Assembly (NCBI GenBank): GCA_021818475.1
Contig: JAKADZ010000002.1
Location: forward strand, 64,536 to 128,535
DNA: 64,000 nucleotides
Source of the DNA: Nanobdellota archaeon
GTDB lineage: Archaea > Nanobdellota > Nanobdellia > Pacearchaeales > GW2011-AR1
Reading direction: 5' to 3'
The number at the start of each line of letters is the position of its first letter. Within the stretch, counting starts at the first letter, position 1. Below are positions 35,762 through 63,827 of this stretch, piece by piece. A program made the translations under genes and the position numbers. The notes under the pieces were generated by a model. The model was given only the letters and a program-made list of their open reading frames with translations, was not told where the DNA came from and did not search any database.

Positions 35762-37090
35762 TTATGGAGTTAATCTATCACGATCTCTTGGGAACATTGT
35801 TGCTTCTTTAACATTGTCAAGTCCGCAGATTTTTTGTGTGATTCTTTCAAGTCCAATACTCCATCCTGCATGAGGGGGTGCGCCGTATCTGAAAGAATCA
35901 ATATAAGATTCAAAATTCTTTGGATTAAGTCCTTTCATTTTTATTCTCTTGATTAACAATTCAGGAAGATGAATTCTCTGCCCGCCTGAAGTAATTTCAA
36001 CACCCAGATATAAAGCATCAAATCCCTCGCTGACTTTGCTGTCTTCTTTTTCATCTTTAGGCATAATGTAAAACGGCTTTAATGATGATGGCCACGAATG
36101 TGTAAAAACAAGATCTCCGGGATACATTTCACAAAGTTTAATTTCCTGTTCGGGAGTAAAGTCTTCTCCAAGTTTTCCACCAACTTTTTTTATTGCTTCC
36201 TCATAACTAAGATAAATTCCTTTCGGAACTTTCAAATTCTTAATCCCCAAAATTTCAAGTTCTTTCTTGCATTTCTCGAGAACAGTTTGAACAATATCTG
36301 CAACAACTTCTTCTTCCTCTTTCATAACTTCAAATTGATTTTTGAAAGCTACTTCAATGTCCATTTGCCTTATTTCATTAATATGTCTAGTAGTATTATG
36401 TTTCTCTGCTCTCCAAACAGGAGTAATAGTAAAAACTTTTTCCATGGAACAGGCAAGCATTTGCTTGTATAACTGAGGGGACTGAGCAAGATAAGCTTTC
36501 TTTTCAAAATACTGGACAGGGAACAGTTCTGTTCCTCCTTCAGATGCAGCTGAAATTATGCAGGGTGGCTGGATTTCCAAAAATCCTTTTTTGTAAAAAT
36601 GTTCTCTGAAAGTATTCTCTATCACATTCTGAATTTTAAAAATTGCCTGTGTTTTTCTTCTGTGAAAATCCAAAAATCTGTAATCAAGTCTCTTCGGCAA
36701 TTCCGTCTTTGAATTTTCAGAAACATCAATAAGCAAATCTTCTGCTTTATTAAGAATTTCAATTTTTGTTGGAGAAATTTCTTTTCCTCCTGGAGCCTGC
36801 TTTGAATCTTTAACTTCTCCTGAGATATACACTACTGACTCTCTTGAAATCTTGTCTATGATTTCAAAAATTTTCTTGTCAACTTCACCTTCAACAGCAG
36901 TTACCTGAATTTCTCCTGAGATATCAGATAAGATAAGAAATTTTATTTTCCCTAAAGCACGGGTATTTTTCACCCATCCTGCAAGTTCAACTTCCTTCTT
37001 CTTTCCGCTGAAAACTTCTGAAATTGAAATACGATTTTGCATTAAAAAATTACATAATCGGGATTTATTAGGTTTTTGGTAATTTTCCAT
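35762..37090 (-). CDS. aspS: aspartate--tRNA ligase (archaeal type, probably non-discriminating)
   Basis: 442 aa. OB-fold N-terminus (VELAGWVKNTRALGKIKFLILSDISGEIQV) and class II motif 3 (YGAPPHAGWSIGLERI). The non-discriminating call is inferred from the neighbouring gatCAB. Confidence 0.9.
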   Translation of the reverse strand: MENYQKPNKSRLCNFLMQNRISISEVFSGKKKEVELAGWVKNTRALGKIKFLILSDISGEIQVTAVEGEVDKKIFEIIDKISRESVVYISGEVKDSKQAPGGKEISPTKIEILNKAEDLLIDVSENSKTELPKRLDYRFLDFHRRKTQAIFKIQNVIENTFREHFYKKGFLEIQPPCIISAASEGGTELFPVQYFEKKAYLAQSPQLYKQMLACSMEKVFTITPVWRAEKHNTTRHINEIRQMDIEVAFKNQFEVMKEEEEVVADIVQTVLEKCKKELEILGIKNLKVPKGIYLSYEEAIKKVGGKLGEDFTPEQEIKLCEMYPGDLVFTHSWPSSLKPFYIMPKDEKEDSKVSEGFDALYLGVEITSGGQRIHLPELLIKRIKMKGLNPKNFESYIDSFRYGAPPHAGWSIGLERITQKICGLDNVKEATMFPRDRDRLTP

Positions 37091-37123
37091 TAGATTTTTA
37101 AATCAAAATTATTTTCGGAAAAT

Positions 37124-37675
37124 ATGACAAATCCATGGCATGATATTGAAGTTGGAGATAGAGCTCCTGAAATAATAAATGCGGTAATAGAAATTCCAAA
37201 AGATTCGACGGTAAAATATGAACTTGATAAAAAAACAGGATTGCTAAAGATGGACAGATTCCTTTATTCTGCAGTCCATTATCCCGGAGATTACGGATTC
37301 ATTCCCCAGACACTATGGGATGACAGGGACCCGCTCGATATTATTATATTAACAGGCAGACCGCTCTACCCAATGACGCTAGTAAAAGCCAGAGTCATAG
37401 GAGTTCTGAGGATGATAGACAGTGGGGAAAAAGATGACAAAATAATCGCAGTTTACAACGATGATCCGCGATACAAAGAAATAGAAGATGTCAAACATGC
37501 CCCTTCCCATACAATTGCAGAATTAAGACATTTCTTTGAAACTTACAAGCATCTTCAGGGAAAAAAATGCGAAATACTGGAAGTTCTCGGAAAAGATTCA
37601 GCATTCAAAGATATTGAAAGAGCAAAAAAGATGTATGAAGAAAAATATGGAAAAAAGAATAATTCATCTCTCTAA
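37124..37675 (+). CDS. ppa: inorganic pyrophosphatase (family I)
   Basis: 183 aa. VIEIPKDSTVKYELDK, YPGDYGFIPQT, DRDPLD and DDKIIAV motifs. Confidence 0.92.
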   Translation: MTNPWHDIEVGDRAPEIINAVIEIPKDSTVKYELDKKTGLLKMDRFLYSAVHYPGDYGFIPQTLWDDRDPLDIIILTGRPLYPMTLVKARVIGVLRMIDSGEKDDKIIAVYNDDPRYKEIEDVKHAPSHTIAELRHFFETYKHLQGKKCEILEVLGKDSAFKDIERAKKMYEEKYGKKNNSSL

Positions 37676-39115
37676 TAATTTCTTTATAATTCCCATAACT
37701 TCTCCGCCATTAATTCGGCCTTTCATTTCTTTCATTACCAATCCCATATAAGCATTCTCAGAAAGTCCTGGTTTTTCCTTTATAATTTTCAGAATTTCCT
37801 CTTCAACATTCCCGTCATGTTTCTTGAACTCGATTGCTTTTTCCATAGATTCCCCGTTAACAATTTTTTCCAGAACAAGTTTAATCTGTTCCCGTGAAAT
37901 TTTATTGTCTCTCAAAGATTCAGCAATAAAAATCAAAACATCTTTATTCAAGATTTCTTCAACTTCATTCAGTGATTTTTTTTCATGTGAAGCAATCTCC
38001 TTTGGAAAAACAAGCATGAGTTTTGCCATCAAAGTTGGTTCATTAAAAATATCAAGAAGTTCTTTGAATTCCTCAATTTTGTTATGCTTGAATAAAAGTT
38101 TAATCATTTCTTCATTAAGCCCTATTTTTTCGAGCCCTTTTTCAATATCTTCCCTCAGTTCAGGAAGGGTTTTCTTTGCTTCATTAATCATGTCTCTTGA
38201 AATCTTCAGCAGAGGCAAATCAGTTTCGGGGTACATTCTTGCCGCTCCAGGCAAAGGTCTAAGAAATTCAGTTGTTCCGTCGGGAAGAGCATTTCTGACT
38301 TCAGGTTTTACATATTCTTTTTTCTCAATAATGTCAAGTTGCCTTTTTATTTCAGTATTTATCGTCTGAACCATCATCGCCGGATCCTGAAATCCTTTTA
38401 TTTCAACTCTCTCTCCGTTTTTTATTGAAAGATTCAAATCCTGTCTTATTGTCCCAATCCCCCTTTTAACCTTGCAGCTTCGAAGAACTTTTCCAAGATA
38501 TAATGCAACTTCCTTGACCTGCTCAGGATCTTTCATATCCGGGGAAGTGGCTATCTCCACAAGAGGGATGCCAAGCCTGTCCAGCCTAAAAATACTTGAA
38601 TCTTTTTTTCTTTCAATTATCCTTGCGGCATCTTCTTCAAGACAAATGCTTTGAATTCCGACTCGGCCGGATTTTGTAACAATCCATCCATCATGTGCAA
38701 TCAAAACAGTCCTCTGAAATCCTGAAGTGTTGCTGCCGTCGATAACTGTCTTCCTCATAATCTGGGTGACGGGAAGAATTCTTGCGTTCAGCATGATTGC
38801 AACATGAAGGGCAATTTGCAAGGCTTCCTGATTAATTTCATAAGGAGGCATTTCATCAAGCTCAACAAGACAGGTTGTATCATAACCTTCGTAAATAAAT
38901 TCTTTTTCTTTTTCTGCCTCGTGTTTTGCAGCAATATCAATTTCCCCGCTTTCTCCCGCAACCACATGAAGTTTTCTCTTCACTTTAAAGTCTGGTTCAT
39001 CCTGTCTTAAAACTGAAAGACAATTGCAGAATAATTTTTTAGTGTCTAGCTGCTGATGAATTTCAAGCCCTGATTTGAACCCGATTTTATCATAGTTAAT
39101 TTTCTCTTCAGTCAT
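37664..39115 (-). CDS. gatE: Glu-tRNA(Gln) amidotransferase subunit E (short form)
   Basis: 483 aa. GLEIHQQLDTKKLFCNC, VVAGESGEIDIAAKHE, TCLVELDEMPP and VIDGSNTSGFQRT are GatE-specific blocks. It appears shorter than the GatE proteins I recall (about 600 aa). Confidence 0.8.
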   Translation of the reverse strand: MTEEKINYDKIGFKSGLEIHQQLDTKKLFCNCLSVLRQDEPDFKVKRKLHVVAGESGEIDIAAKHEAEKEKEFIYEGYDTTCLVELDEMPPYEINQEALQIALHVAIMLNARILPVTQIMRKTVIDGSNTSGFQRTVLIAHDGWIVTKSGRVGIQSICLEEDAARIIERKKDSSIFRLDRLGIPLVEIATSPDMKDPEQVKEVALYLGKVLRSCKVKRGIGTIRQDLNLSIKNGERVEIKGFQDPAMMVQTINTEIKRQLDIIEKKEYVKPEVRNALPDGTTEFLRPLPGAARMYPETDLPLLKISRDMINEAKKTLPELREDIEKGLEKIGLNEEMIKLLFKHNKIEEFKELLDIFNEPTLMAKLMLVFPKEIASHEKKSLNEVEEILNKDVLIFIAESLRDNKISREQIKLVLEKIVNGESMEKAIEFKKHDGNVEEEILKIIKEKPGLSENAYMGLVMKEMKGRINGGEVMGIIKKLLER

Positions 39116-39159
39116 AAATTATTAAGAAGAAAAGAGTTTATTAAATTTTAGAATTAATC

Positions 39160-39915
39160 CTAAGGGTTATATGCTTTTTTTACAGAATTTAAAAGTTCAG
39201 GGAAAAATTTTTCAACAATAGGAATTTCCTCTTTTCTTAGGTTGAGGGAATATTTGCTGATAAAATCCAGATAACTCAAAATTAATTCCTGGGAGGATGA
39301 AGAATGTTGTCTAAACAGATTTCCTAATTTATCCGTATCAATGGAAGGGAGTTCAGGCTTATAAAATGGAGCAAGCAATATGTTTAAACTATCAACGGCA
39401 TCTTTCCCATAGAACCTATTTTTAAGAATAGATCTTCTTGCTTTTAGAGTAATCAAAAATTCAGGGGAAATAGAAGTAAGGTTGCCGGTTTCAAAAGAAA
39501 ATCTTCGGGCATCCTGCTCAAAGCTTTCAGGAATTTTCCATCCATGAGTTTCGTCTATATCAAACCCCACCGGAATCCCTTGATATTCTAAAAATACATC
39601 TCCGTAATCTGTTGTCTGAAAAAGTTCTGCCCCAAATCGCTGATAAAGTAAATTCAATCCTTCTTCATTGGTAGTACAATCCAAATCGTTGCTTGTTCTT
39701 CTCATTTTTCTAAAACCAAGAATTTTGGAGCATGCACAAAATCCCCCCATTACAATTAAGTTTCCTTCAGAAATTTCATCAAGTTCAGTCATAGCTCTGA
39801 TTAAATAATCTTCATCAAAATGTTGTTTGCCATACTCGTCAAGTCTTTTTCGTCCAAGTTCTTTCCTTTGAATTTTCATGGAAGAACAAAGTTTAGTCAA
39901 TTTTGATTTTTCCAT
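39160..39915 (-). CDS. putative nucleotidyltransferase (AbiEii/DUF1814-like motif)
   Basis: 251 aa. VMGGFCACSKILGFRKMRRTSNDLDCTT resembles the GG-x-A...R-x-T/S-x-D-L/I-D nucleotidyltransferase motif. The assignment is tentative. Confidence 0.4.
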   Translation of the reverse strand: MEKSKLTKLCSSMKIQRKELGRKRLDEYGKQHFDEDYLIRAMTELDEISEGNLIVMGGFCACSKILGFRKMRRTSNDLDCTTNEEGLNLLYQRFGAELFQTTDYGDVFLEYQGIPVGFDIDETHGWKIPESFEQDARRFSFETGNLTSISPEFLITLKARRSILKNRFYGKDAVDSLNILLAPFYKPELPSIDTDKLGNLFRQHSSSSQELILSYLDFISKYSLNLRKEEIPIVEKFFPELLNSVKKAYNP

Positions 39916-39944
39916 TTTATTTTTTGCTTATTCGGATTTGAAAT

Positions 39945-40748
39945 TTATTTCTCAAAAATATCAATACAGGCAGAAGAAATTTTTAAATCACCGAGAATTT
40001 CGTCTAACCCGGTATTAATCTTGCTTGCACAGTAATTATAAAATTCTCTTTGTCCATCCAGATCCCTTTTCTCATAAGCAGGAAATGTTTTACAAAGCAG
40101 TCTAAGATAATATTTTGCTTCTCCTGCAGGAATGATTACTGGGGGCAATCCTTCGCCATATAAAATTCTGTCCTGGATAAGCCTGAATGTTCTTTTGTTG
40201 CCTTCATCAAAAGGTTGAATAGCTGCACCTTCTAAGTGCCATGTTATCGCTGCTTCTAAAAAATCATCTGAAAAATTTTCTCGGATAGATTCATCAGCTT
40301 TCTGCATTCTCTCCTGAATTTCTTCCGGTTCAGCAGGACTATAATCATCGCAGTTCAGAGTAACTCTATCAGTCCTAAAACCAAAATGTTTTTTTGAGCC
40401 TCCAAGAACCAAAGAATTTAATGATTTAACAATCTCAAAATCATCTTTATTAATATCCTCTATCAAACTTTCGGAAAGCATTGGATTAACAAGATAATTC
40501 CATCCGTTATGCATACTCTGAATCCCTTTTGTTGATAATTTTTTCAGAGTTTTTTGGGATTTATTTTCGAGATATAAACTTCTTCTTAATTCAGGATTCT
40601 CTATCCAGAAAGAAAACACATCTCCGATAGTTCGGAGCTCTTTTATTATCTTTCTTCTTCTTGTTTCGTAACATTGAGGATGATCTCTGATTCTGTCAGC
40701 TTTCTCAGAAATTTCTCTTCTTAAAATAGGATCAATATATTTTTGCAT
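39945..40748 (-). CDS. Fic/Doc-family protein with degenerate core motif (Gln in place of catalytic His)
   Basis: 267 aa. IQPFDEGNKRTFRL aligns with the Fic motif H-P-F-x-[DE]-G-N-G-R-x-x-R, with H to Q and G to K (Doc-like K). Confidence 0.6.
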   Translation of the reverse strand: MQKYIDPILRREISEKADRIRDHPQCYETRRRKIIKELRTIGDVFSFWIENPELRRSLYLENKSQKTLKKLSTKGIQSMHNGWNYLVNPMLSESLIEDINKDDFEIVKSLNSLVLGGSKKHFGFRTDRVTLNCDDYSPAEPEEIQERMQKADESIRENFSDDFLEAAITWHLEGAAIQPFDEGNKRTFRLIQDRILYGEGLPPVIIPAGEAKYYLRLLCKTFPAYEKRDLDGQREFYNYCASKINTGLDEILGDLKISSACIDIFEK

Positions 40749-40811
40749 TATTTAACAGAACCTTCAATATTATTTAAATTCTTCTATTGTAACCTCTTTA
40801 TAGTTATTACA

Positions 40812-41204
40812 TTAAACAATTCTTACTATTTCTCCATTTTTATCAAGCTCAATAAAATGGGTTAATTTTCCGCTGACGTAATCAGGACACTGATTTTCCG
40901 GGAGATTATCTTCTGCCGTTCTTGGAACATGGACTAAATCAACGGCATAATTATCACATGTTCCCAAACATTGTGAATTTTTTTCCTGTTTAAAATTGTC
41001 GAATAAATAATTAGCGCATGAAATTAAATGTTGTTGTTCAAGAACATCTTCAGGTGTTGAAACAGGATTTCCATGCTGAACCCAGACTCCCCGTGAATCT
41101 TTTACCCAGCCATCTTCCTGCATTCTGAAGAATAAAAAAATTCCAAATATGATTAAAAGAAAAATTCCCGCAACCCAATACACCTTCTTTATTTTTGGCT
41201 TCAT
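40812..41204 (-). CDS. membrane-anchored Cys-containing hypothetical protein (130 aa)
   Basis: N-terminal TM VYWVAGIFLLIIFGIFLFF. Its ATG overlaps the gatD stop (ATGA). Confidence 0.5.
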   Translation of the reverse strand: MKPKIKKVYWVAGIFLLIIFGIFLFFRMQEDGWVKDSRGVWVQHGNPVSTPEDVLEQQHLISCANYLFDNFKQEKNSQCLGTCDNYAVDLVHVPRTAEDNLPENQCPDYVSGKLTHFIELDKNGEIVRIV

Positions 41205-42484
41205 TCCTCTAATCGGTTATTAAGCTCTCCCGAAATATTCTCTAGCATTTTTTCTTTAATAATTTTCTTAGTCTTCTTCCACTCATCATGCCCCAAAACC
41301 CAGCCCAGTTTTACAAATGCAGTTTCACTCAGCATATCTTCTAGATAAATTACTCCTGTTCCCAAAACTTCTCTTCCACTCGAATAAACAAGAGGATCAG
41401 TTCTGCCGTAGATGCACTGGCTTGCAGCACAGACAATAATTCCTTTTTTCTGAACCTCTTTTAATTTCTGAATCCATGATTCTCTGGCCTCTTTTGCAGG
41501 AGCGTCCCCAATGCCAAATAATTCCAAAACTATTCCTTTGTATCCTTTCCTCACATAATAATCCAGAATATCCGGACTCTGTCCGGGATAAATTTTAACA
41601 AGTGCAACTTTCTCTTCGAATTTGTAATCTAAAATTGCTTTGTTCTTATTTCTTAATTTCCATTCAGAAATTCGCTCTATTTTGTCAGGAAAAATTTTTG
41701 CAAATGGCTTGTCATTCACAACTTTAAATGCATCTCTCCGTGAAGTGTGAAGTTTTCTGACTTTTGTTCCGGGCATAGCATAGCAATAATCATCATTTGA
41801 GGAAGCATGTCCGACGAGAGAAACCTCTGCAATATCAGAAACAGCAACTAAACTCGCACATTGCAAATTTAAATCTGCGTCGCTGCTTGCTCTGTCTATG
41901 CTTCTCTGTGAATAAGTAAGAACAACCGGCTTGTTTAGATTTTTAATAAAAAAACTCAAAGCTGAAGAGGTATAATGCAGAGTATCAGTCCCATGAGTAA
42001 TTATTACTCCCTGAATATTATTATCATTCAATGAATCCACAGTTAATTTCGCAATTTTCTGCCAGTCCTTAAAATCCATTGCGCTGGAATCTTTTAGAAA
42101 AGGAACTTCCACCTTGGAAATATTTACTTTATCAAAAATTTTCGGAAATGTTTTAAATAAATCCTCGGGGGTTTTTATCGGGGAAACTCCTCCTGTTCTG
42201 TAATCCATTTTCGAAGCGATTGTCCCTCCGGTAATAATGAGAGCAACATTTTTTTTCTCAGGGTCTTTTTTGATCTCAAAAGGTTTTTCTTTCTCTTCTT
42301 TATTTTTTTTCATAAGAACAATTTTCAAAACATCTTTTTTGTTGAATCCGATGTTATATCCAGAATCAAGTTTGAGCATAACAATCCCTGTTTCAGGACT
42401 GTCAAGCAAAACTCCTTCATAAATTAATTTTGTAAGATGAACTTCAACGTAATCTCCGGGTTTAACTCCAGTTTTTTCCATCAA
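41201..42484 (-). CDS. gatD: Glu-tRNA(Gln) amidotransferase subunit D
   Basis: 427 aa. N-terminal barrel domain plus an asparaginase-like domain (ALIITGGTIASK, ITHGTDTL). Confidence 0.9.
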   Translation of the reverse strand: MMEKTGVKPGDYVEVHLTKLIYEGVLLDSPETGIVMLKLDSGYNIGFNKKDVLKIVLMKKNKEEKEKPFEIKKDPEKKNVALIITGGTIASKMDYRTGGVSPIKTPEDLFKTFPKIFDKVNISKVEVPFLKDSSAMDFKDWQKIAKLTVDSLNDNNIQGVIITHGTDTLHYTSSALSFFIKNLNKPVVLTYSQRSIDRASSDADLNLQCASLVAVSDIAEVSLVGHASSNDDYCYAMPGTKVRKLHTSRRDAFKVVNDKPFAKIFPDKIERISEWKLRNKNKAILDYKFEEKVALVKIYPGQSPDILDYYVRKGYKGIVLELFGIGDAPAKEARESWIQKLKEVQKKGIIVCAASQCIYGRTDPLVYSSGREVLGTGVIYLEDMLSETAFVKLGWVLGHDEWKKTKKIIKEKMLENISGELNNRLEE

Positions 42485-42519
42485 TCAGAGAGAGTAGAGA
42501 AATATAAAAAACTTCTTGT

Positions 42520-42783
42520 TTATACAAACCCCATAAGTCCGGTTTCCAATTTTTTAAATTTGGTTATCTTTCCGTTTTTTATTCCTTTCTGAATTTCATC
42601 AAAAGATTGATACTCCACAGAAAAAGAGCGGTCTTTCATTGAACGATTCATAAAAATGTTCATGTTCTCATTAATACAGTAAACTTCCCCTTCATTTGTG
42701 ACATAACCCCCCTGTTTGATAATTTCCTGATTGCAAAACTGGCAATAAAATCTTTCATTCTTCTGAAATAAAAACTTAAACAT
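42520..42783 (-). CDS. small hypothetical protein (87 aa)
   Basis: ORF with CQFC...C residues. No confident motif. Confidence 0.4.
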   Translation of the reverse strand: MFKFLFQKNERFYCQFCNQEIIKQGGYVTNEGEVYCINENMNIFMNRSMKDRSFSVEYQSFDEIQKGIKNGKITKFKKLETGLMGFV

Positions 42784-42857
42784 TTACCAAAAAAATGTTA
42801 ATAATTTTTAAATGTTTATATACAAAATTTAATAAATTAAAATAAATTCAAGAATAG

Positions 42858-44219
42858 ATGGTAAAAATAGGATTGGAAATTCATGGTTATATAAACACAG
42901 GTGAAAAACTTTTCTGCAGATGCAAAACAGTTCATGGGTTAAAATTTTCAGAACCAAATACAAATATCTGCCCGATTTGCACAGGACAACCTGGAGCGAA
43001 GCCGATGCTTCCGAATAAATCAGCAATTGACAAATCAATTCAGATAGGCCTTATATTAAACTGCAAGATAAATCCAAAATTAATCTGGCAAAGGAAACAT
43101 TATGACTGGCCTGACCTTCCAAAAGGATACCAAAATACAATTTCAGGAGCTCATGCAAAAACTACGGGAGAAAACGGAGAGTTTATGGGAATAAAAATAA
43201 GGGAGATTCATCTTGAAGAAGACCCCGCCGCATGGAATCCAAAAACAGGGGAAATAGATTACAACCGTTCTGGTTCACCATTAATTGAAATTGTAACAGA
43301 GCCCGATTTCTCTTCGGCGGAACAGGTAATTGACTGGCTTAAACAATTAGTCTTAACTTTAAGTTATATAAAAGTATTTGATAAAAAATCAGGGATAAAA
43401 GCAGATGTGAATATTTCTCTTCCTGAATTAAAGGGAGAAAGAGTCGAAGTAAAAAATATCAATTCACTGAAAAATATCAAAACTGCAATAGAGTTCGAGA
43501 TAAGCAGACAAAAAACAGATGTTCCAAAGGTTCAGGAAACAAGAATGTTTGATGAATCAAAAGGAGCAACATTAAAAATGCGAAGCAAAGAACAGGCAGA
43601 AGATTACAGATTCATTTCAGATCCGGATTTGCCTGCAATAATAATTGAAAAATCAAGAGTAGAAAAAATAAAATCTGCAATTCCTGAAACCCCTCAGGAA
43701 AAACTAAAAAAGCTGATTAAAAAATATAACATTGAAAAAAAATATGCCGAGATTCTTACTAAAAAAATTGATATTGCAGAATTTTTCGAAAAAATTATTG
43801 AGAAAGCAAACCCTAAGATTGCATCACAGTGGACAACAATTGAACTTCTTAGCGTTTTGAATTACAACAAAAAAGAATTTGAAGATGTTGAAATTTCTCC
43901 CGAGCATTTCATTGAACTTTTGAAATTAATTGAAAATAAAAAAATTACAGAATTAAAAGCAAAAGAAATTCTAAGAAGCTGGAAAGAAAAATCTTCATCT
44001 CCTGCAAAAGAAGCAGAAAGCAGTTCAAAAATTTCTTCAGAAGGAGAAATTGAAAAAGTTGCAAAAAAAATAATCAAAGAAAATTCAAATGCAGTAAAAG
44101 ATTTCAGGGCAGGAAAATCAGAATCTTTAAATTTCCTGATAGGAAAAGTCATGCAAAAAACAAATAAGCGCGCAGATTTCAAAACAGCTAGGGAAGTTTT
44201 GGAAAAATTATTAAGATAA
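42858..44219 (+). CDS. gatB: Asp/Glu-tRNA amidotransferase subunit B
   Basis: 453 aa. IGLEIHGYINTGEKLFCRC, PNTNICPICTGQPGAKPMLPN, HYDWPDLPKGYQNT and a YqeY-like tail. Confidence 0.9.
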   Translation: MVKIGLEIHGYINTGEKLFCRCKTVHGLKFSEPNTNICPICTGQPGAKPMLPNKSAIDKSIQIGLILNCKINPKLIWQRKHYDWPDLPKGYQNTISGAHAKTTGENGEFMGIKIREIHLEEDPAAWNPKTGEIDYNRSGSPLIEIVTEPDFSSAEQVIDWLKQLVLTLSYIKVFDKKSGIKADVNISLPELKGERVEVKNINSLKNIKTAIEFEISRQKTDVPKVQETRMFDESKGATLKMRSKEQAEDYRFISDPDLPAIIIEKSRVEKIKSAIPETPQEKLKKLIKKYNIEKKYAEILTKKIDIAEFFEKIIEKANPKIASQWTTIELLSVLNYNKKEFEDVEISPEHFIELLKLIENKKITELKAKEILRSWKEKSSSPAKEAESSSKISSEGEIEKVAKKIIKENSNAVKDFRAGKSESLNFLIGKVMQKTNKRADFKTAREVLEKLLR

Positions 44220-47196: not shown

Positions 47197-48639
47197 ATGG
47201 AAAAATCTCAGGAAGGATTAACTGTAAAGAAAGATGAAAATTTCAGTGAATGGTATACGCAATTGATAGAAAAAGCAGAGCTAGCTGATCTAAGGTATAA
47301 CATTAAAGGATTCTTAGTATTCCAACCTTGGTCTGTACTTTCTATGGAGAAGATGTTTTCTTCAATGGAAAAAGTTTTACAAAGAAAGGGGCATTCTCCT
47401 TATTTCTTTCCAACACTAATTCCAGAAAATAATTTAAAAAAAGAGAGTTCACACATTAAAGGATTCACACCCGAAGTATTTTGGGTAACTCAGGGAGGGG
47501 ATAATGTTCTTGAAGAAAAATTTGCTTTAAGACCCACAAGTGAAACTGCATTTTATCAAATGTTTTCTTTGTGGATTAGAAGTTATAAAGAATTACCATT
47601 TAAAACTTATCAAAGAGCAAATATATTTAGACATGAAACAAAAGCAACACGTCCATTTTTAAGAAGTAGAGAATTTCATTGGATTGAAACACATTGTGCT
47701 CATGCTTCAAAAGAAGATGCAATGTCTCAAGTGAAAGAAGATATGGAAACCACAAAAGAAGTTTTACATGATATTTTTGGATTACCTTTTATGTTTTTTG
47801 AAAGACCTTCTTGGGATAAATTTCCTGGAGCAGAAAAAACTTTTGCAGCAGATGTTTTAAATCCAGACGGGAAAGTTGTTCAGCAACCCTCAACTCATAT
47901 TTTAAAACAAGAATTTCCAAGAGCGTTTGGAGTAACATTTAAAGATAAAAATGGAGAAGAAAAAACAGTTTGGACAACCTGTTATGGTCCAGCGATATCA
48001 AGAATATTCGCAAGTGTGATGATTGTTCATGGAGATGACAAGGGATTAAAATTTCCTTGGGATATTGCTCCATTGCAAGTTGTAATTATCCCAATAAATG
48101 AAGAAGTAAAACAAAAAGCGGAAAAATTAAAATTAGAAATAGAAAAATTCGCTTCTGTAAAAATTGACTATTCAGATAAGCGCCCAGGAGAAAAATTCAA
48201 TTATTGGGAAATGAAAGGGGTTCCAATAAGAATAGATTTAGGATTGAAAGATTTGGAAAATAAAAAAATAACTGTATTTAGAAGAGACTTAGATAAAAAA
48301 GAAGTTGTTAGTGAATCCGAACTTATTAAAAAAATAAAAAAAATTTCAGAAGAAATAACAAAAAATTTAACAAAGAAAGCAGATAATCTTTTCAATAATA
48401 AAATAAAAGATGCAAAAAATATTAAAGAAATTAAAAAAATAATAGAGGAGGGAGGAATTGCAAGATGCAATTTTTGCTCTGTAGAAAAAGAGGGAGAAAA
48501 ATGTGCAGAAATAATCGAAAAAGAAACAGGAGCCCAAGTGAGGGGAACAAAATTAGATGAAAAACAAAAACCAAACGGAAAATGTGCAATATGTGGAAAA
48601 CCTGCTCATAACATAGTTTATATTGCTAAATCATATTAA
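47197..48639 (+). CDS. proS: proline--tRNA ligase (archaeal/eukaryotic type)
   Basis: 480 aa. FSEWYTQLIEKAEL start, motif 2 IFRHETKATRPFLRSREF, class IIa anticodon-binding domain (APLQVVIIPI) and a C-terminal Cys cluster ending ...YIAKSY. Confidence 0.92.
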   Translation: MEKSQEGLTVKKDENFSEWYTQLIEKAELADLRYNIKGFLVFQPWSVLSMEKMFSSMEKVLQRKGHSPYFFPTLIPENNLKKESSHIKGFTPEVFWVTQGGDNVLEEKFALRPTSETAFYQMFSLWIRSYKELPFKTYQRANIFRHETKATRPFLRSREFHWIETHCAHASKEDAMSQVKEDMETTKEVLHDIFGLPFMFFERPSWDKFPGAEKTFAADVLNPDGKVVQQPSTHILKQEFPRAFGVTFKDKNGEEKTVWTTCYGPAISRIFASVMIVHGDDKGLKFPWDIAPLQVVIIPINEEVKQKAEKLKLEIEKFASVKIDYSDKRPGEKFNYWEMKGVPIRIDLGLKDLENKKITVFRRDLDKKEVVSESELIKKIKKISEEITKNLTKKADNLFNNKIKDAKNIKEIKKIIEEGGIARCNFCSVEKEGEKCAEIIEKETGAQVRGTKLDEKQKPNGKCAICGKPAHNIVYIAKSY

Positions 48640-48727
48640 TTAGAGGGGGAGGTAGTTTAAGATAAAACATATATCATGGAGATATAAAATCTAGAATCAT
48701 TTCCTAGCCTCCCCATAATTAAAAAAA

Positions 48728-50164
48728 ATGACTTTCCAACTTAATCCAACAATATCATTAATTTTTTTGGGTTCACTTACCCTAATAACAGTAGGGTTAA
48801 TTCTTTTACTTTCTAAAAAATATAAAAATAATTTAGACAACTTTTTAGTTTCAGGAAGAAATATTAGTGGGGTTACGGGTGCATTTTCCGTTGCAGTAAC
48901 ATGGGTCTGGGCTCCAGCATTGTTAGTTTCTTCACAACAAGCATTTGAGAAAGGGCTACCTGGAGCTTTTTGGTTCATAATTCCTAACACATTAGCTTTA
49001 ATCTTAATTGGAACACTTATTAGTAAATTAAAAAAAAGGATGCCTAAAGGATTTACCCTTCCTCAATTTATAAAAGAGAATTTAGGGAAAAAGAATCATA
49101 TTTTATACATTAGCATCATATTGTTAGTACAAATATACTCAATTATTATTCATCTAACTGCAATATTATTAATCTTGTCTCCTCTATTAAATATAAGTAA
49201 AACAAGTATAATGATAATTCTTGCAATGATATTTTTATTGCTTGCATCAATAAGGGGAATTAGGTCTTCTTTCTTTTCAGATTGGGTTAAATTTATTTTT
49301 ATATTTATTATCGTTTTATTTATAGTTCCCTTAACCATCTACTTATCAGGAGGATTATCATCTATCTTAGGGGGAATAGGAGGAACAAGTGGAAAATTTA
49401 CAAATATTTTTGATTGGAGTGTATTCTTAACATTTGGAATTGCAATTAGTATTTCATTATTATCAGGGGCAACAATTGACCAACAATTATGGCAAAGAGC
49501 ATTTTCTATAAAAGAGGGGAAAGAAAAAAAAGCGTTTTACATTGGAGCAATTCTTTTCTTTTTAATCCCCTTACTTTTATCTTTATTAGGGTTTATTGCA
49601 GCAAACAAAACTTTAAATTTATCTATTTTAAATAGCCAATTAGCAGGATATGATGTAATCTTAAATTATCTTCCAAATGTACTAATATTAATTTTTATAT
49701 CTTCCTTAATGATAAGTTTATTTGCTGCGGGAGCTTCAGCATTATGTGCAGCGAGTTCTGTTTTCACCATAGACATTTATTCAACATATATTAATTCAAA
49801 AGCGTCAGAAAAGAAAAAATTATTTGTTGGTAGAAGTTCTATGATCTTAATACTTCTTCTTGGGATGATGATTGCATTTATTCCAAATATTCAAATTGTG
49901 TACTTAGTTCTATTAATAGGTTCTATACGAGGAGCATTGCTTATTCCAACTATTGTTGCCATTTATAAAGAAAAAATCTCAAGCAAATATTTTTTTATAA
50001 GTTCAGTTTTAGGAATCTTATTTGGATTACCCTTATTCATTTTAGGGACAATTGTCAAAAATCCAATTTTATCCAGCATTGGTGCTCTCCTTTCAGTAGG
50101 GATTAGCTCGATAATAATATTAATTTCTTTAAAATTAAAAAAATATTCAAATAAATATGGTTAA
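48728..50164 (+). CDS. sodium:solute symporter family transporter
   Basis: 478 aa, about 13 TM. FLVSGRNISGVTGAFSVAVTWVWAPALLVSSQQAFEKGLPGAFWF is typical of the SSS family N-terminal region. Substrate unknown. Confidence 0.8.
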   Translation: MTFQLNPTISLIFLGSLTLITVGLILLLSKKYKNNLDNFLVSGRNISGVTGAFSVAVTWVWAPALLVSSQQAFEKGLPGAFWFIIPNTLALILIGTLISKLKKRMPKGFTLPQFIKENLGKKNHILYISIILLVQIYSIIIHLTAILLILSPLLNISKTSIMIILAMIFLLLASIRGIRSSFFSDWVKFIFIFIIVLFIVPLTIYLSGGLSSILGGIGGTSGKFTNIFDWSVFLTFGIAISISLLSGATIDQQLWQRAFSIKEGKEKKAFYIGAILFFLIPLLLSLLGFIAANKTLNLSILNSQLAGYDVILNYLPNVLILIFISSLMISLFAAGASALCAASSVFTIDIYSTYINSKASEKKKLFVGRSSMILILLLGMMIAFIPNIQIVYLVLLIGSIRGALLIPTIVAIYKEKISSKYFFISSVLGILFGLPLFILGTIVKNPILSSIGALLSVGISSIIILISLKLKKYSNKYG

Positions 50165-51533
50165 TTATTCCACATTTTTAAAATTATTAAAGGAAGCGGG
50201 AATATTGGATTATACCTATCCAGTAAGGGGAGATATTGTTTGGTTACCTTATGGAGTCAAATTAATGCAATTATTTAAAGAAAATATAATCTCTTTAATA
50301 GAAAAAGAAGGGTATGAAGGATACGACTTCCCAATTCTCATGCAAGGAAACTATTTAAGACAAGTAAGTAAAAAGGTTAGTAATTTTTTAGATAATGTTT
50401 TTTGGATAAAAGATAAAGATTTATTTATTAAACCAACAGGAGAATATTCAATATACCCTATGTTCCATAGATGGATTAAAACTCAAAAAGATTTACCCCT
50501 CCGGATATATCAAATAGGATCTTTTTTTAGGCCAATTAAAAATTGTGATAAATTATTTAACCTTCAAGAAAGGCATTATTTTTTTGAAGGTCATGTTGCA
50601 ACAAAAAATGAAAAAGAATGTGAAGAAGAATTTAACAAAGCAAAAAAAATTAATGAGAATATTTTTAGGTTATTAGCAATCCCCGTTCTAAAATCAGAAA
50701 GACCTTTATCTACTAATAAACCGGTTTCCAAAAAGACAATAGGATATGATACATTGTTATATATAAATAAAACCTTGCAAGTAGGGGCAGTTTACCTACA
50801 GTCAGATATTCATTCGAAAATGTTTGATATAAAATTTACTGATAAAGACAATCAAAAAAAATATACCCATCAGATAACTTGGGGATCCTCAGAACGTTTA
50901 GTATTTGCTAGTCTTATGAGTACTATAATAAATGGAGAATTAAATATTATTCCAAGAATTGCTCCTTATCAGATAGTAATCATTCCTATAATAAAAAGGG
51001 GAAAATTTAAAGAAATTAACTCTTTTTGCGAAAAATTAAATAAAAAAATTATTTCTTCAGGATTCAGAAGTTATATAGACTATTCAGATATACCTATCGG
51101 AAAAAAATTTCATGAATGGGGGGTAAAAGGAATTCCATTAAGAATCGATATTGGAGAAAAAGAGATTAAAGAAAAAAAGTTTTCAATATACTCGAAATAT
51201 CTAGAAGTTAAGGAAAAGTATTCATTTAATGAATTATCTTCCTCAAGAATAAACCAATTCTTAAATAAGATAGAAGAAAATATGATCAAAACAAATGAAG
51301 AAAATTTTAAAAAAAAGATAAAAACTATACAATCCATTAAAGGAATAAAAGAGAAACAGAAGGATTATCCTATTTTAAAATTTCCATTAGATTATGATAA
51401 CTCTTTAGTTAAGGAGATTGAAAAAGATTATTCTGGAGAGATACTAGGTTTTGAAAAAAATATTTCAGAAGAGAAATGCATTTTTACGGGTAAATTAACC
51501 AATTATTTAGTTTATTTTTCTAGAAGAATATAA
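50157..51533 (+). CDS. divergent ProRS paralog (class IIa aaRS-like, degenerate catalytic motifs)
   Basis: 458 aa, collinear with ProRS: WLPYGVKLMQLF, IKPTGEYSIYPMF, LPLRIYQIGSFFRP, ITWGSSERLVF, APYQIVIIPI. It lacks the motif-2 Glu, the C-terminal Cys cluster and the terminal Tyr. Its start overlaps the transporter stop by 8 nt. Confidence 0.7.
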   Translation: MVNYSTFLKLLKEAGILDYTYPVRGDIVWLPYGVKLMQLFKENIISLIEKEGYEGYDFPILMQGNYLRQVSKKVSNFLDNVFWIKDKDLFIKPTGEYSIYPMFHRWIKTQKDLPLRIYQIGSFFRPIKNCDKLFNLQERHYFFEGHVATKNEKECEEEFNKAKKINENIFRLLAIPVLKSERPLSTNKPVSKKTIGYDTLLYINKTLQVGAVYLQSDIHSKMFDIKFTDKDNQKKYTHQITWGSSERLVFASLMSTIINGELNIIPRIAPYQIVIIPIIKRGKFKEINSFCEKLNKKIISSGFRSYIDYSDIPIGKKFHEWGVKGIPLRIDIGEKEIKEKKFSIYSKYLEVKEKYSFNELSSSRINQFLNKIEENMIKTNEENFKKKIKTIQSIKGIKEKQKDYPILKFPLDYDNSLVKEIEKDYSGEILGFEKNISEEKCIFTGKLTNYLVYFSRRI

Positions 51534-51661
51534 ACAGTCCGGTCAAGGAAAAGAAATGCGTTGTTTGCGGAAAACAGGCAGATTATTGGGGGTATGTGGG
51601 GAAAACCTACTAAAGAGGAATAATAAGCAAGATTTATAAATAAATTCTAAAGAATAAAAAT

Positions 51662-62129: not shown

Positions 62130-63827
62130 ATGGACAGAAAAGAATTAATAAAAAAATTCATTGATTTTTTCAAATCAAAGGGGCACAGGGAAATTCAGAA
62201 TTCCAGTCTGATTCCGGAAAATGATCCAACTGTTCTGTTTACAACTGCAGGAATGCATCCTCTTGTCCCATATCTCCTTGGCCAAAAACATCCCCAGGGA
62301 AAACTTTTGGTAAATGTTCAGAAATGCGTCAGAACAGATGATATAGATGAAGTCGGAGATGAAACACACCACACATTTTTTGAGATGATGGGGGATTGGA
62401 GTCTTGGAGATTATTTTAAGGAGGGGGCAATTACGAACTCATTTGAATTTCTGACTAAAATATTAAAAATCCCGAAAGAGAAAATTTCAGTAACTTGTTT
62501 TGAGGGGGATAAAGATGCCCCAAGAGATGATGAATCTGCAGAAATCTGGAAAAAATTAAGTATAAACAAAATAAAATTCCTCCCAAAAAAAGATAACTGG
62601 TGGGGGCCGGCAGGAAAAACAGGACCTTGCGGGCCTGATACAGAAATGTTTGTGAACAATGTTGAAATATGGAATGATGTTTTCATGCAGTACAATAAAA
62701 CCGAAGAAGGAAAATTCTCCCCTCTCGCTCAAAAAAATGTTGATACCGGAATGGGTGTTGAAAGAACACTTGCAATTCTTAATAAGTTAGATGATAATTA
62801 TCTTACAGACTGTTTTCTTCCGATAATAAATTCAATTGAAAAGGAATCAGACAAAACATACGGAAAAAATGAAAAAGATACAAAGGCAATGAGAATTATT
62901 GCAGACCACATTAAAGCATCAATTTTTATTTTGGGAGACGGGATTGTCCCTGGAAATAAAGAGCAAGGCTACATTTTAAGAAGATTGATAAGAAGAGCAA
63001 TACGGTACGCAAAAGATTTAGGGGAAAAATTTTCCGTTGAGGAAGTAGCAAAACCAGTTTTTGAAATTTACTCGGACTATGAACATTTAAAGAAAAATAA
63101 AAATAAGATTCTGGATGAATTAAAGAGGGAAGAAATTAAATTTCTGGAGACTCTTGAAAAAGGGATGAATATCTTCGAAAAATTAACAAAGGGCAAAAAA
63201 GAAATTGACTGCAAAGATGCTTTCCTTTTATATCAGAGTTATGGATTTCCTGTAGAAATGATTGAAGAAGAATGCAAAAAAAGGAAGATAAAATTCTCTA
63301 TAGAAAAATTTGAAAAAGAGTGCAAAGTTCATCAGGAACTTTCACGGACAGCAACTGCAGGAAAATTTAAATCAGGCCTGGCAGATGAATCATTGCAAAC
63401 AACAAAATTGCACACTGCTTCGCATTTGCTTTTAGCAGCATTAAGAATCGTATTAAAAGATAAAGAAATTATTCAAAAAGGAAGTAATATAACTCCGGAG
63501 AGATTAAGATTGGATTTTAATTTCCCGAGAAAACTTACCGATGAAGAAATCAAAAAAACAGAAGATTTAGTTAATAAGCAAATTCAAAAATCTTGTGAAG
63601 TTATAAGGCAGGAAATGCCAATCAAAGAAGCAAAAGAAAAAGGAGCAAGGGGTTCATTTGATTCAAAATACGGAGAAAATGTTTCAGTTTATACGGTAGA
63701 AGATTTCTCCAAAGAGATTTGCGCAGGCCCTCATGTAAAAAATACTTGTGAACTTGGACATTTCAAAATATTAAAAGAAGAATCTTCTTCATCAGGAGTC
63801 AGGAGAATTAAAGCAGTTGTGGAATAA
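62130..63827 (+). CDS. alaS: alanine--tRNA ligase, compact bacterial-like form (no C-Ala domain)
   Basis: 565 aa. FFKSKGHREIQNSSLIPENDPTVLFTTAGMHPLVPY, QKCVRTDDIDEVGDETHHTFFEMMGDWSLGDYFK, GPCGPDTEMF, VDTGMGVERT and RIIADHIKA. Editing-site HTASHLL and CAGPHV. Ends GVRRIKAVVE. Confidence 0.88.
   Translation: MDRKELIKKFIDFFKSKGHREIQNSSLIPENDPTVLFTTAGMHPLVPYLLGQKHPQGKLLVNVQKCVRTDDIDEVGDETHHTFFEMMGDWSLGDYFKEGAITNSFEFLTKILKIPKEKISVTCFEGDKDAPRDDESAEIWKKLSINKIKFLPKKDNWWGPAGKTGPCGPDTEMFVNNVEIWNDVFMQYNKTEEGKFSPLAQKNVDTGMGVERTLAILNKLDDNYLTDCFLPIINSIEKESDKTYGKNEKDTKAMRIIADHIKASIFILGDGIVPGNKEQGYILRRLIRRAIRYAKDLGEKFSVEEVAKPVFEIYSDYEHLKKNKNKILDELKREEIKFLETLEKGMNIFEKLTKGKKEIDCKDAFLLYQSYGFPVEMIEEECKKRKIKFSIEKFEKECKVHQELSRTATAGKFKSGLADESLQTTKLHTASHLLLAALRIVLKDKEIIQKGSNITPERLRLDFNFPRKLTDEEIKKTEDLVNKQIQKSCEVIRQEMPIKEAKEKGARGSFDSKYGENVSVYTVEDFSKEICAGPHVKNTCELGHFKILKEESSSSGVRRIKAVVE

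Follow-up and report, generated by a model that had tools for sequence, protein, structure and literature searches.

Why should an archaeal genome carry, beside a normal prolyl-tRNA synthetase (ProRS) gene, a transporter and a second ProRS-like gene, and is the second protein a decaying duplicate, a spare synthetase, or something else? The genes in question are in a 64,000-nt stretch of DNA from a Nanobdellota archaeon (assembly GCA_021818475.1, contig JAKADZ010000002.1, positions 64,536 to 128,535), referred to here in its entirety as the window. An initial annotation, made from the sequence alone, described a canonical proS, a sodium-solute symporter (SSS) family transporter, and a “degenerate” ProRS paralog with lost catalytic and C-terminal residues, and suggested a non-canonical function such as sensing, sequestration, or amino-acid ligation, perhaps with proline or an analog as the transported solute. 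The observation itself was confirmed: the three ORFs are exactly as described, on the same strand, with the transporter and the paralog overlapping by 8 nt (ATGGTTAA). The interpretation was only partly supported, and two features were missed, an RNA gene in the 88-nt space between proS and the transporter and a short reading frame following the paralog.

Features of the locus, in window coordinates.
Coordinates	Strand	Feature	Length	Remarks
47197..48639	+	Canonical E-type (archaeal/eukaryotic-type) prolyl-tRNA synthetase, proS	480 aa	
48646..48715	+	Atypical tRNAPro-like RNA gene		Begins 6 nt after the proS stop and ends 12 nt before the SSS-family transporter start
48728..50164	+	SSS-family (PF00474) secondary transporter of a DUR3-like subfamily	478 aa	
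50157..51533	+	ProRS-like protein, type-1 member of an uncharacterized ProRS-derived family	458 aa	Overlaps the transporter ORF by 8 nt
51524..51613	+	Mini-ORF with a canonical E-type ProRS C-terminal tail		−1 frame, overlaps the paralog stop; no ATG, GTG, or TTG start codon

The first gene is the housekeeping enzyme. It scores 482.6 bits on TIGR00408 (cutoff 437), has all three Pfam domains, including ProRS-C, and retains all published ligand-contact residues, the CxxC...CxxC cluster, and the terminal Tyr. The third protein is collinear with it over its full length (29% identity, E = 1e-55) and has tRNA-synt_2b and HGTP_anticodon domains plus a weak ProRS-C hit, but scores only 277 bits on TIGR00408, below the cutoff. 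The residue claims of the initial annotation held on alignment: the motif-2 and motif-3 Arg are kept, the motif-2 Glu is lost (FRPI), the Zn-Cys cluster is reduced to a single Cys, and the protein ends in RRI rather than Tyr.

The paralog is nevertheless not degenerate. Compared with its counterpart at the locus L001 (75% paralog identity, same 8-nt overlap), it is under purifying selection, with a dN/dS of 0.19 across a dS of about 0.8, and is more conserved than the adjacent proS, which is only 58.6% identical to its L001 ortholog (dN/dS 0.31). The identical protein occurs in several independent samples. It is confidently predicted to fold as a full ProRS (AF2 pLDDT 95.3, pTM 0.92; Foldseek TM 0.96 and rmsd 1.6 Å to 1NJ1). 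An exhaustive profile search placed it in an unnamed ProRS-like family of at least 68 clusters at 50% identity, found in DPANN archaea, CPR bacteria, and Clostridia, and monophyletic in 100 of 100 neighbor-joining bootstraps. The family signature is P(T/S)GE ... FRxx without Glu ... RPxx(G/T)N(K/N)PV ... YxQ ... GxSxR ... RR-x at the C-terminus, with R125, E144, Y213, and R457 invariant and N187 present in 95% of members. A decaying duplicate or annotation artifact, for which only the several missing canonical motifs could be cited, is therefore refuted by the selection and family data, there being family-specific invariant residues across both archaea and bacteria.

Two conditions that would have counted against the proposal had been named beforehand: retention of the full ProRS catalytic set on proper alignment, and absence of the transporter-paralog pair elsewhere. 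Neither was found. Using the published ligand contacts of TgPRS (PMC9974123), the amino-acid anchoring residues and both class-II arginines are kept by the family (R470 and E489 at 100%, the TxE Glu at 85%, R594 at 81%), while the adenine and ATP contacts and the pocket Phe and His are not: E472, R481, F485, and F534 are lost, H560 becomes Tyr in 100% of members, and N187, a Gln, and the C-terminal R457 are gained. The pair is conserved elsewhere, including at large distance: at L001 and L002, with the same gene order and overlap; at L021/L022/L025, in a bacterial host (49% SSS-family transporter and 35% paralog identity), where the order is tRNA-Pro(UGG), transporter, ProRS-like gene, PaaK-like ligase, and P-type ProRS; and as a transporter-ProRS-like pair at L026. 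A non-canonical paralog functionally coupled to an importer is thus supported.

Family members recurrently adjoin importers of three unrelated kinds: SSS in the window clade, L021, and L026; NMT1-type ABC in L003, L009, L011, L012, L016, L019, L023, and others; and Peripla_BP_6 in L030 and L037. Canonical ProRS is adjacent in three lineages, with three ProRS architectures: E-type in the window and L001, P-type without INS (two copies) in L014, and P-type with INS in L021. These associations, and the residue losses, bear on the possibility that the paralog is a second genuine ProRS isoform charging ordinary tRNAPro with proline, for example a stress-tolerant, high-affinity, or inhibitor-resistant copy. 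Dual systems do exist, such as Bacillus thuringiensis ProRS1 (P-type) and ProRS2 (E-type) (PMC11229370); in L014 and L021 an E-type-derived protein likewise sits beside a P-type enzyme; some sources annotate family members as proline-tRNA ligase; and some members sit beside other aminoacyl-tRNA synthetase (aaRS) genes (IleRS in L009, CysRS in L012). However, BtProRS2 keeps all catalytic motifs and the terminal Tyr and charges normal tRNAPro, while the protein described here fails the ProRS equivalog model and lacks residues conserved at 96–100% in canonical ProRS (E472, R481, F534), as well as H560 and the terminal Tyr. The family is also old and monophyletic rather than a set of recent resistance variants, and is rare in species-representative genomes. 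An isoform would not explain the recurring importer linkage or the dedicated tRNA-like gene, and this reading is considered very unlikely.

The transporter gives no specific support for proline. It scores 52 bits on PF00474 but only 23 bits on the PutP equivalog model, against a cutoff of 515; its best solved relatives are DUR3 urea/H+ symporters (E = 1e-26, against 1.7e-9 for the choline transporter and 1e-5 for vSGLT), and it resembles DUR3 urea/polyamine symporters, though only distantly. Membership in PF00474 and a length of about 480 aa are what it shares with DUR3-type and PutP-type transporters. It is 81% identical to the L001 copy (dN/dS 0.12). Homologs at 40–57% identity occur in many phyla, one at 41% in an Arthrobacter NRPS cluster; the 49% homolog in L021 again lies directly upstream of a ProRS-like gene.

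The proS-transporter spacer holds a tRNAPro-like cloverleaf. Its acceptor stem is GGGGAGG/CCTCCCC with discriminator A73; the D arm (GTTT-AAGATA-AAAC) lacks G18G19; the anticodon loop (C-A-U-G-G-A-G) gives anticodon UGG with A33 in place of U33 and a pairable C32/G38; the T arm (CTAGA-ATCATTT-CCTAG) lacks a T-Psi-C sequence; and no CCA is encoded. The element is unique in the window and about 90% identical between the window and L001, although coding dS is about 1. L001 has A34 (anticodon AGG), all archaeal copies have A33, and G35/G36 are invariant. It was missed by ARAGORN and by the Rfam tRNA model even at E ≤ 10, but is homologous to the tRNA-Pro(UGG) called by both upstream of the bacterial operon in L021/L022/L025. 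The cloverleaf is 96.4% paired, with five compensatory pairs against zero to one in slid controls, and a covariance model built for it finds only these six copies, at 89–98 bits, with ordinary tRNAs scoring 42 or less. The L021 tRNA might, however, simply be that bacterium's ordinary tRNAPro(UGG).

Its position suggests another possibility, that this is a regulatory module: a cis-acting tRNA mimic in the transporter leader, bound by the ProRS-like protein as a ligand-sensing pseudo-synthetase (or by the canonical ProRS itself) to tune translation of the importer according to proline or tRNAPro status. The thrS operator, a tRNAThr anticodon-arm mimic bound by ThrRS, is likewise a tRNA-shaped element next to a start codon in a class-IIa synthetase locus, and HisZ is a regulatory HisRS paralog with a degraded catalytic site that may still bind the amino acid. 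The 12-nt distance to the start codon fits such a mimic equally well; also in favor are the lack of an encoded CCA, the invariant G35/G36, a degraded ATP site with amino-acid-anchoring residues kept, and a host that is probably an auxotroph dependent on import (inferred from gene content). On the other hand, in L021 the homologous RNA is a free-standing tRNA gene 74 nt upstream of a different ORF; the acceptor and T stems are perfectly maintained with compensatory changes, which a mimic of the anticodon arm would not require; most family members (type 2) have no such element; HisZ lacks the anticodon-binding domain; and the enzymes among family partners (an S9-type hydrolase, a PaaK-like ligase, PEP-utilizers proteins) suggest a pathway rather than a switch. 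A regulatory role is regarded as unlikely, but not excluded.

The mini-ORF following the paralog encodes KNINSPVKEKKCVVCGKQADYWGYVGKTY and then a stop, including exactly the CxxC and terminal Tyr (CxxC…GKTY) “lost” from the paralog (KKCVVCGKQADYWGYVGKTY). It is intact in L001 and L002, in the same frame and at the same junction, but absent from other family loci. Differences fall at third codon positions (2/4/10), with pN about 0.14 and pS about 0.82; the stop is kept as TAA or TGA, the one linker indel is in-frame, and homology ends at the tail's stop.

This tail could restore the terminal Tyr that stabilizes the aminoacylation site (PMC11229370), which would suit a re-specified synthetase forming a natural orthogonal pair with the tRNA-like RNA. 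In this view the ProRS-like enzyme still forms an acyl-adenylate, binding ATP in a non-canonical way, and loads an imported proline analog or other polar amino acid onto the RNA, for non-ribosomal transfer or for deliberate insertion at CCN codons. Retention of the TxE loop and of both class-II arginines fits a still-active, non-canonical adenylating enzyme; the side-chain pocket is remodeled (Phe to Lys, His to Tyr, Leu to Gln), as expected for changed amino-acid specificity; and the gene is translationally coupled to the transporter and accompanied by a dedicated tRNA gene. There is a precedent in ProRSx/tRNAProA of Streptomyces (Vargas-Rodriguez et al., 2021, as reviewed in PMC9437257), a paralog coexisting with the housekeeping ProRS and genetically paired with its own unusual tRNAPro-derived gene. 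ProRSx, however, is bacterial (P-type) in origin and catalytically intact, and its tRNA carries an Ala anticodon, while here the protein derives from E-type ProRS with a rebuilt ATP and proline pocket, the RNA keeps a Pro anticodon (UGG or AGG) but lacks U33 and the D-loop and T-loop consensus, and an importer is part of the unit. The adenine-specific contacts (the motif-2 Glu and the stacking Phe) and the fully conserved loop Arg are lost, with no conserved replacement even within the type-1 (SSS- or proS-linked) subtype, and the motif-3 Arg is Ser in L026 and Lys in L014. Nor does this model explain why a canonical ProRS is adjacent in three lineages, and A33, the absence of T-Psi-C, and the A34 variant argue against ribosomal use. 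It remains possible, if doubtful.

What the analysis establishes is a conserved cassette of four parts (an atypical tRNAPro-like RNA, an SSS importer, a ProRS-derived protein with a rebuilt active site, and a clade-specific canonical-tail mini-ORF) next to the housekeeping proS, and an old, monophyletic protein family repeatedly linked to solute importers and, in the subtype present here, to a canonical ProRS. Any activity, RNA binding, or substrate is inferred from sequence and predicted structure alone. It is judged somewhat more likely than not that the protein acts on the 3′ end of the dedicated tRNAPro-like RNA and not in housekeeping translation.

A more specific mechanism is preferred only tentatively. 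The RNA keeps G35/G36, A73, and G1-C72, the archaeal tRNAPro identity set (G35/G36 and C72/A73 are archaeal ProRS identity elements; PMC11229370), and would be charged with proline by the adjacent canonical ProRS. The ProRS-like protein would dock on the same RNA through its retained anticodon-binding triad (D308, G315, K317); type-1 members keep D-G-K, whereas type-2 members (ABC- or BP6-linked) have Glu replaced by Arg. Its putative pocket would still anchor an alpha-amino or imino acid through the TxE loop, the motif-2 Arg, and E144, but, with adenine and ATP contacts lost and N187, K188, Y213, Q215, and R457 as its presumed new lining, would transfer or condense the prolyl group with the solute imported by the translationally coupled transporter. 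The missing G18G19 and T-Psi-C, A33, variable base 34, and pairable C32/G38 would keep the RNA out of ribosomal decoding. This model does not explain the −1-frame tail; the three importer types do not point to one substrate; and since type-2 members have neither a tRNA-like gene nor an adjacent ProRS, the mechanism may not generalize to the whole family.

Other aaRS-derived enzymes have changed acceptor or substrate, with an aaRS catalytic fold recruited to non-translational chemistry, including AsnA, the SerRS-like amino acid:carrier-protein ligases, and EpmA/PoxA (PMC9437257). Cyclodipeptide synthases have also lost ATP binding and use pre-charged aminoacyl-tRNA, and the proposed reaction would be a class-II counterpart of these. 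Those enzymes shed the anticodon-binding domain, and the class-II examples retain canonical ATP-binding motifs, while this family keeps the entire three-domain ProRS architecture and loses the adenine contacts; no class-II enzyme is known to use aminoacyl-tRNA in this way. As to function, the initial suggestions of sensing, sequestration, or ligation remain hypotheses, with the tRNA-like gene moving the balance toward tRNA-linked chemistry. The conserved package of abnormal tRNAPro-like RNA, solute importer, and synthetase look-alike, which also occurs in bacteria and whose protein belongs to a large uncharacterized family, points to an undescribed, non-housekeeping, tRNA-linked reaction on an imported compound.

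The three reading frames described in the initial annotation, a prolyl-tRNA synthetase gene, a sodium:solute symporter gene and a third gene collinear with the first, are present exactly as described, and its observation therefore holds; its interpretation, of a degenerate synthetase paralog recruited to a non-canonical function alongside its transporter, was supported only in part, and the locus is considerably richer than the initial annotation allowed. The first of the three frames is a bona fide E-type ProRS, scoring 482.6 bits on the TIGR00408 (proS_fam_I) model against a curated equivalog cutoff of 437 and containing all three Pfam domains. The second encodes an SSS-family transporter (PF00474). 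The third overlaps it by the 8 nt ATGGTTAA and is collinear with the neighboring ProRS over its whole length (29% identity, E = 1e-55), but reaches only 277.1 bits on TIGR00408; other members of the family to which it belongs score 227–280 bits. Coordinates of these and other features are collected in the table below.

Coordinates of features in the window and in related loci (positions are those of each locus)
Locus	Feature	Coordinates	Strand
Window	tRNA-Lys(CUU) with an intron 3' of the anticodon	21573-21666	-
Window	Cluster of tRNA-dependent amidation genes with AspRS	33565-44219	
Window	Canonical E-type ProRS (proS)	47197-48639	
Window	tRNAPro-like RNA	48646-48715	
Window	SSS-family transporter (SSF)	48728-50164	
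Window	ProRS-like paralog	50157-51533	
Window	-1-frame mini-ORF (tail)	51524-51613	+
Window	AlaRS	62130-63827	
L001	Canonical proS	1400-2863	
L001	-1-frame mini-ORF (tail)	5798-5854	
L002	-1-frame mini-ORF (tail)	4009-4065	
L014 (Clostridia MAG GCA_017938255.1)	Two tandem INS-less bacterial-type ProRS genes	5301-6599 and 6743-8008	
L019 (archaeal MAG GCA_053535375.1)	Array of five NMT1-type solute-binding-protein genes around the ProRS-like operon	2217-16344	
L019	PEP-utilizers swivel-domain protein	6974-7999	
L020	PEP-utilizers swivel-domain protein	46-1071	
L030	PEP-utilizers swivel-domain protein	4739-5068	
L037	PEP-utilizers swivel-domain protein	6198-6530	
L041 (Arthrobacter sp. PAMC25284, CP080382.1)	NRPS cluster with SSF homolog	4778-14685	

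The window, part of a 128.7-kb NCBI contig, is AT-rich (about 32% GC) and archaeal in content: it has an intron-containing tRNA-Lys(CUU), found by Rfam but missed by ARAGORN, and encodes GatD/GatE, Cdc48, and a DHH/RecJ-like protein. A DPANN affiliation is an inference only. A dense cluster of tRNA-dependent amidation genes (GatA-like amidase, GatE-like, GatD, and GatB) lies together with AspRS, and the AlaRS, at only 565 aa, may be truncated or split.

The paralog is under selection. A related locus, designated L001, has the same gene order and the same 8-nt overlap. Synonymous divergence between the two is near saturation (dS 0.8–1.0), yet the paralog is 75% identical (dN 0.15, dN/dS 0.19) and the transporter 81% (dN 0.12, dN/dS 0.12). 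The canonical proS, at similar dS, evolves faster at the protein level, with only 59% identity (dN 0.32, dN/dS 0.31). An AlphaFold2 model built with a family alignment has pLDDT 95.3 and pTM 0.92, and by Foldseek superposes over its full length on M. thermautotrophicus ProRS (1NJ1) with TM 0.96 and rmsd 1.6 Å; with the Pfam hits, this gives the three-domain architecture of E-type ProRS (class-II core, class-IIa anticodon-binding domain, and C-terminal domain), as predicted from sequence. Simple decay is all but excluded.

A word-indexed homology search with the paralog found only two close relatives, and with the paralog or with a 57-sequence family alignment returned almost only canonical ProRS; it was an exhaustive profile search that revealed a graded series of hits well above canonical ProRS. 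A motif table of the 150 best hits separates 68 sequences with a shared derived signature from 84 canonical ProRSs, and on 130 full-length sequences the two groups are split in 100 of 100 bootstraps, although the tree is a neighbor-joining (NJ) one with crude distances and is unrooted. The window protein has all of the signature residues: R125, E144, N187, Y213, Q/H215, and a penultimate C-terminal Arg. A scan of genome contigs with a four-sequence alignment found nothing, and a motif-based DNA pattern found a single Aenigmatarchaeota MAG, so that the distribution described here is not a broad taxonomic census and includes no cultured host; a custom DNA pattern applied to metagenomes gave 18 loci. 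Source names are inconsistent: “aminoacyl-tRNA ligase-related protein” (Aenigmatarchaeota), “hypothetical protein” (Candidatus Yanofskybacteria and Buchananbacteria), and “proline-tRNA ligase” (Clostridia). No curated model names the family, and we found no paper describing it; the only ProRS paralog in the review literature is ProRSx (PMC9437257).

Active-site changes were assessed from the ligand contacts published for T. gondii ProRS (TgPRS; PMC9974123), mapped by alignment with an offset of +330 anchored on K474–T477 (PMC12152171), and therefore rest on sequence position. The family keeps the TxE loop (Thr or Ser 84%, Glu 85%), the motif-2 Arg (R470, 100%), E489 (100%), H491 (78%), and the motif-3 Arg (R594, 81%). 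It loses the motif-2 Glu (E472, canonical 96%); the loop Arg R481 (canonical 100%); the adenine-stacking F485; the pocket F534 (canonical 99%, now Lys in 56% or another polar residue); H560, which H-bonds the proline carboxylate and is now Tyr in 100% of members; and the terminal Tyr. It gains N187 (95%), Y213 (100%), Q215 or H215 (96%), G427 (97%), and a penultimate C-terminal Arg (98%). In the window protein itself R470, R594, the TxE loop, E489, and H491 are kept, while E472 is Ile, R481 is Asn, and F485 is Arg, all three positions being variable family-wide, and F534 is Lys, T558 is Ala, and H560 is Tyr; neither the ATP-pocket set nor the proline-pocket set of E-type ProRS is complete. That the protein is a second true ProRS is considered very unlikely. 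Motif-1 Pro59 is retained, so dimerization is plausible. We infer that an alpha-amino-acid binding site persists, that canonical adenine recognition does not, and that a new polar and cationic constellation has been installed.

Genomic context was compared across 41 uniformly annotated loci (L-numbers), supplemented by Pfam and NCBIfam scans. In almost every independent lineage the family member lies beside a solute importer, but the importers are non-orthologous: an SSS symporter in the window clade, in L021/L022/L025, and in L026; NMT1/SsuA-type ABC systems in L003/L004, L009/L010, L011, the CPR clade (L012 and relatives), L016 (Aenigmatarchaeota), L019, and L023/L033; and a LivJ-like Peripla_BP_6 (BP6) binding protein in L030 and L037. 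In L019, an array of five NMT1-type solute-binding-protein genes, most of them paired with a TrmB-family regulator, surrounds the ABC, PEP-utilizers, and ProRS-like operon. Other recurrent neighbors are a ~265-aa S9/S15/S33-like alpha/beta-hydrolase; phosphohistidine “swivel” (PEP-utilizers) domain proteins, encoded right next to ProRS-like genes of the ABC- or BP6-linked subtype in L019, L020, L030, and L037; a PaaK-like ligase (L021); and other aaRS genes. In L030 and L037 the swivel-domain protein is followed by a ~370-aa protein with no Pfam, NCBIfam, or PDB match, which is unrelated to the L019 PEP-utilizers protein. Six CPR/Parcubacteria loci (L012, L027, L028, L031, L032, and L034) share an arrangement of ProRS-like, CysRS, and tRNA-Cys(GCA) genes with a divergent operon of NMT1 binding protein, S9-like hydrolase, ABC ATPase, and permease; L009 and L010 have IleRS upstream, and L037 has tRNA-Val(UAC) immediately upstream of the ProRS-like gene.

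A canonical ProRS is adjacent in three unrelated lineages, with three different architectures: E-type in the window and L001; two INS-less P-type copies directly upstream of the family member in L014, the second overlapping it by 8 nt (TIGR00409 at 356 and 419 bits, against a cutoff of 307); and P-type with INS in L021. The adjacency therefore cannot be a remnant of tandem duplication. The possibility that this family supplies the sole ProRS of CPR or DPANN lineages was considered and is rejected for the window, L001, L014, and L021, where a canonical ProRS is adjacent; elsewhere, judging from the rarity of the family rather than from whole genomes, it is unlikely.

The initial annotation had not recorded an RNA in the 88-nt proS–SSF spacer, which is about 90% identical between the window and L001, far above neutral expectation, and contains a GGGGAGG…CCTCCCC pair unique in the window. 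ARAGORN does not call a tRNA here, nor did it find one in a first set of 10 loci, which at first spoke against a dedicated tRNA; Rfam gave no match of any kind to the spacer even at E ≤ 10, and no riboswitch or T-box was found in 11 family loci. In L021, L022, and L025, however, both ARAGORN and Rfam call a tRNA-Pro(UGG) just upstream of the SSF operon (52.5 bits on RF00005 in L021), and this is visibly homologous to the window element. On the six-sequence alignment, a cloverleaf with 7/4/5/5-bp stems is paired in 96.4% of cells, with five pairs showing double (compensatory) changes against 0–1 when partners are slid. A covariance model finds only these six copies, at 89–98 bits, while ordinary tRNAs score 42 or less.

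The window RNA has G1-C72 and A73, the archaeal tRNAPro acceptor identity, whereas the bacterial copy has C1-G72/A73, the bacterial identity (PMC11229370). G35 and G36 are invariant. It has neither G18G19 nor T-Psi-C (the D loop is AAGATA and the T loop ATCATTT), A33 replaces U33, C32 and G38 could potentially pair, and the anticodon is UGG in the window but AGG in L001. By inference, these features argue for recognition by a ProRS-type anticodon-binding domain and against a decoding role. In line with this, the family has two subtypes that track genomic context: type 1 members, from SSF/tRNA-like or proS-linked loci, keep the canonical anticodon-domain triad D-G-K and end in RR[ILM]; type 2 members, from ABC- or BP6-linked loci, have the canonical Glu replaced by Arg, often lose the Gly, have FRPH or FRPT at motif 2, and end in RR[ACS]xSP. 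As in the ProRSx system, a paralog is encoded beside its own atypical tRNAPro-derived gene and coexists with a housekeeping ProRS; ProRSx, however, is a bacterial-type, catalytically intact enzyme whose tRNA has an Ala anticodon, while the protein here is E-type derived with a rebuilt active site. A regulatory device made up of a tRNA mimic and a sensor is a further, rather unlikely, reading of the element.

The annotated paralog has one Cys in place of the C-terminal Zn-binding cluster and ends in RRI rather than the conserved terminal Tyr. Directly after its stop codon, the -1 frame encodes KNINSPVKEKKCVVCGKQADYWGYVGKTY followed by a stop (CVVCGK…GKTY), which is the canonical CxxCGK…Tyr terminus that the paralog's own C-terminus lacks. 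The same ORF is intact at the same junction in L001 and in L002, a further related locus. Several features point to selection on coding sequence: differences concentrate at third codon positions (2/4/10), pN is about 0.14 against pS of about 0.82, the stop is kept as TAA or TGA, the only indel is in-frame, and homology ends at the tail's stop. The frame has no ATG, GTG, or TTG, however, and there is no canonical -1 slippery heptamer at the paralog stop, although an ATA codon overlaps it (ATATAA). The tail is selected as coding sequence, and its expression may be by -1 frameshifting or by termination-reinitiation. Between the window and L002, the proS–SSF–paralog block is 95–96% identical at the protein level, but the tail is only 72% identical at the nucleotide level and the downstream DNA cannot be aligned, suggesting a recombination breakpoint at the paralog stop, the 3' edge of the cassette, and possible cassette mobility.

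The transporter belongs to the sodium:solute symporter superfamily (52 bits on PF00474, against a gathering cutoff of 22.8, covering the full-length profile), but it scores only 23.4 bits on the Na+/proline symporter PutP model (TIGR02121), against an equivalog cutoff of 515.5. Its best solved relatives are DUR3 symporters (E = 1e-26). Homologs at 40–57% identity occur in many phyla. In cultured Arthrobacter sp. PAMC25284 a 41% homolog, with no ProRS-like neighbor, lies inside an NRPS cluster with a DegT aminotransferase, a PhyH-family hydroxylase, two C-A-T modules, a PPTase nearby, and a phage-type integrase; this is a second pairing of the subfamily with amino-acid-activating enzymes.

The composition and conservation of the cassette, the family membership of the paralog, purifying selection on it, its rebuilt active site, the tRNA-shaped RNA, and the correlations with genomic context we regard as demonstrated by these comparisons. 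Function is inferred from sequence alone, and it seems somewhat more likely than not that the protein works on the dedicated RNA rather than in housekeeping translation. Of the specific mechanisms, we tentatively prefer an ATP-independent step on the tRNAPro-like RNA after it is charged with proline by the adjacent ProRS, as this would explain the lost adenine site, the retained amino-acid anchors, the ProRS adjacency, and the non-decoding RNA. A re-specified synthetase that loads the imported amino acid is possible but less favored, and some other mechanism may apply.

More speculatively, and doubtfully on present evidence, the cassette could be a naturally mobile, cross-domain, tRNA-dependent small-molecule module, made up of a non-decoding tRNAPro-like carrier RNA, a ProRS-derived enzyme that no longer uses ATP but works on the charged 3' end (or charges it with an imported non-canonical amino acid), and the importer that supplies the co-substrate. 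The type 2 members, linked to ABC or BP6 importers, S9 hydrolases, PEP-utilizers proteins, and CysRS, IleRS, or tRNAVal, would then be a radiation of such enzymes with different RNA and solute specificities in CPR and DPANN organisms, and the window clade would express the canonical ProRS tail by -1 frameshifting or reinitiation, giving two isoforms.

Paralogs of aaRSs are a main source of new tRNA-dependent and amino-acid-activating chemistry, yet only one ProRS paralog, ProRSx, has been described. An aaRS paralog with a dedicated tRNA is thus already on record; what differs here is the importer, the remodeled catalytic site, and membership in a previously undescribed ProRS-derived family with its own invariant active-site residues, a cross-domain distribution in organisms that live by import (CPR, DPANN), and unusually clear genomic partners: importers of three unrelated classes and, in the subtype present here, a dedicated non-canonical tRNAPro-like RNA and the housekeeping ProRS. 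If the protein uses pre-charged tRNA or loads a non-canonical amino acid, it would be either the first class-II counterpart of aminoacyl-tRNA-utilizing enzymes or a natural orthogonal pair that comes with its own transporter, the latter being of interest for genetic-code engineering. The selected -1-frame tail would add a rare archaeal recoding case.
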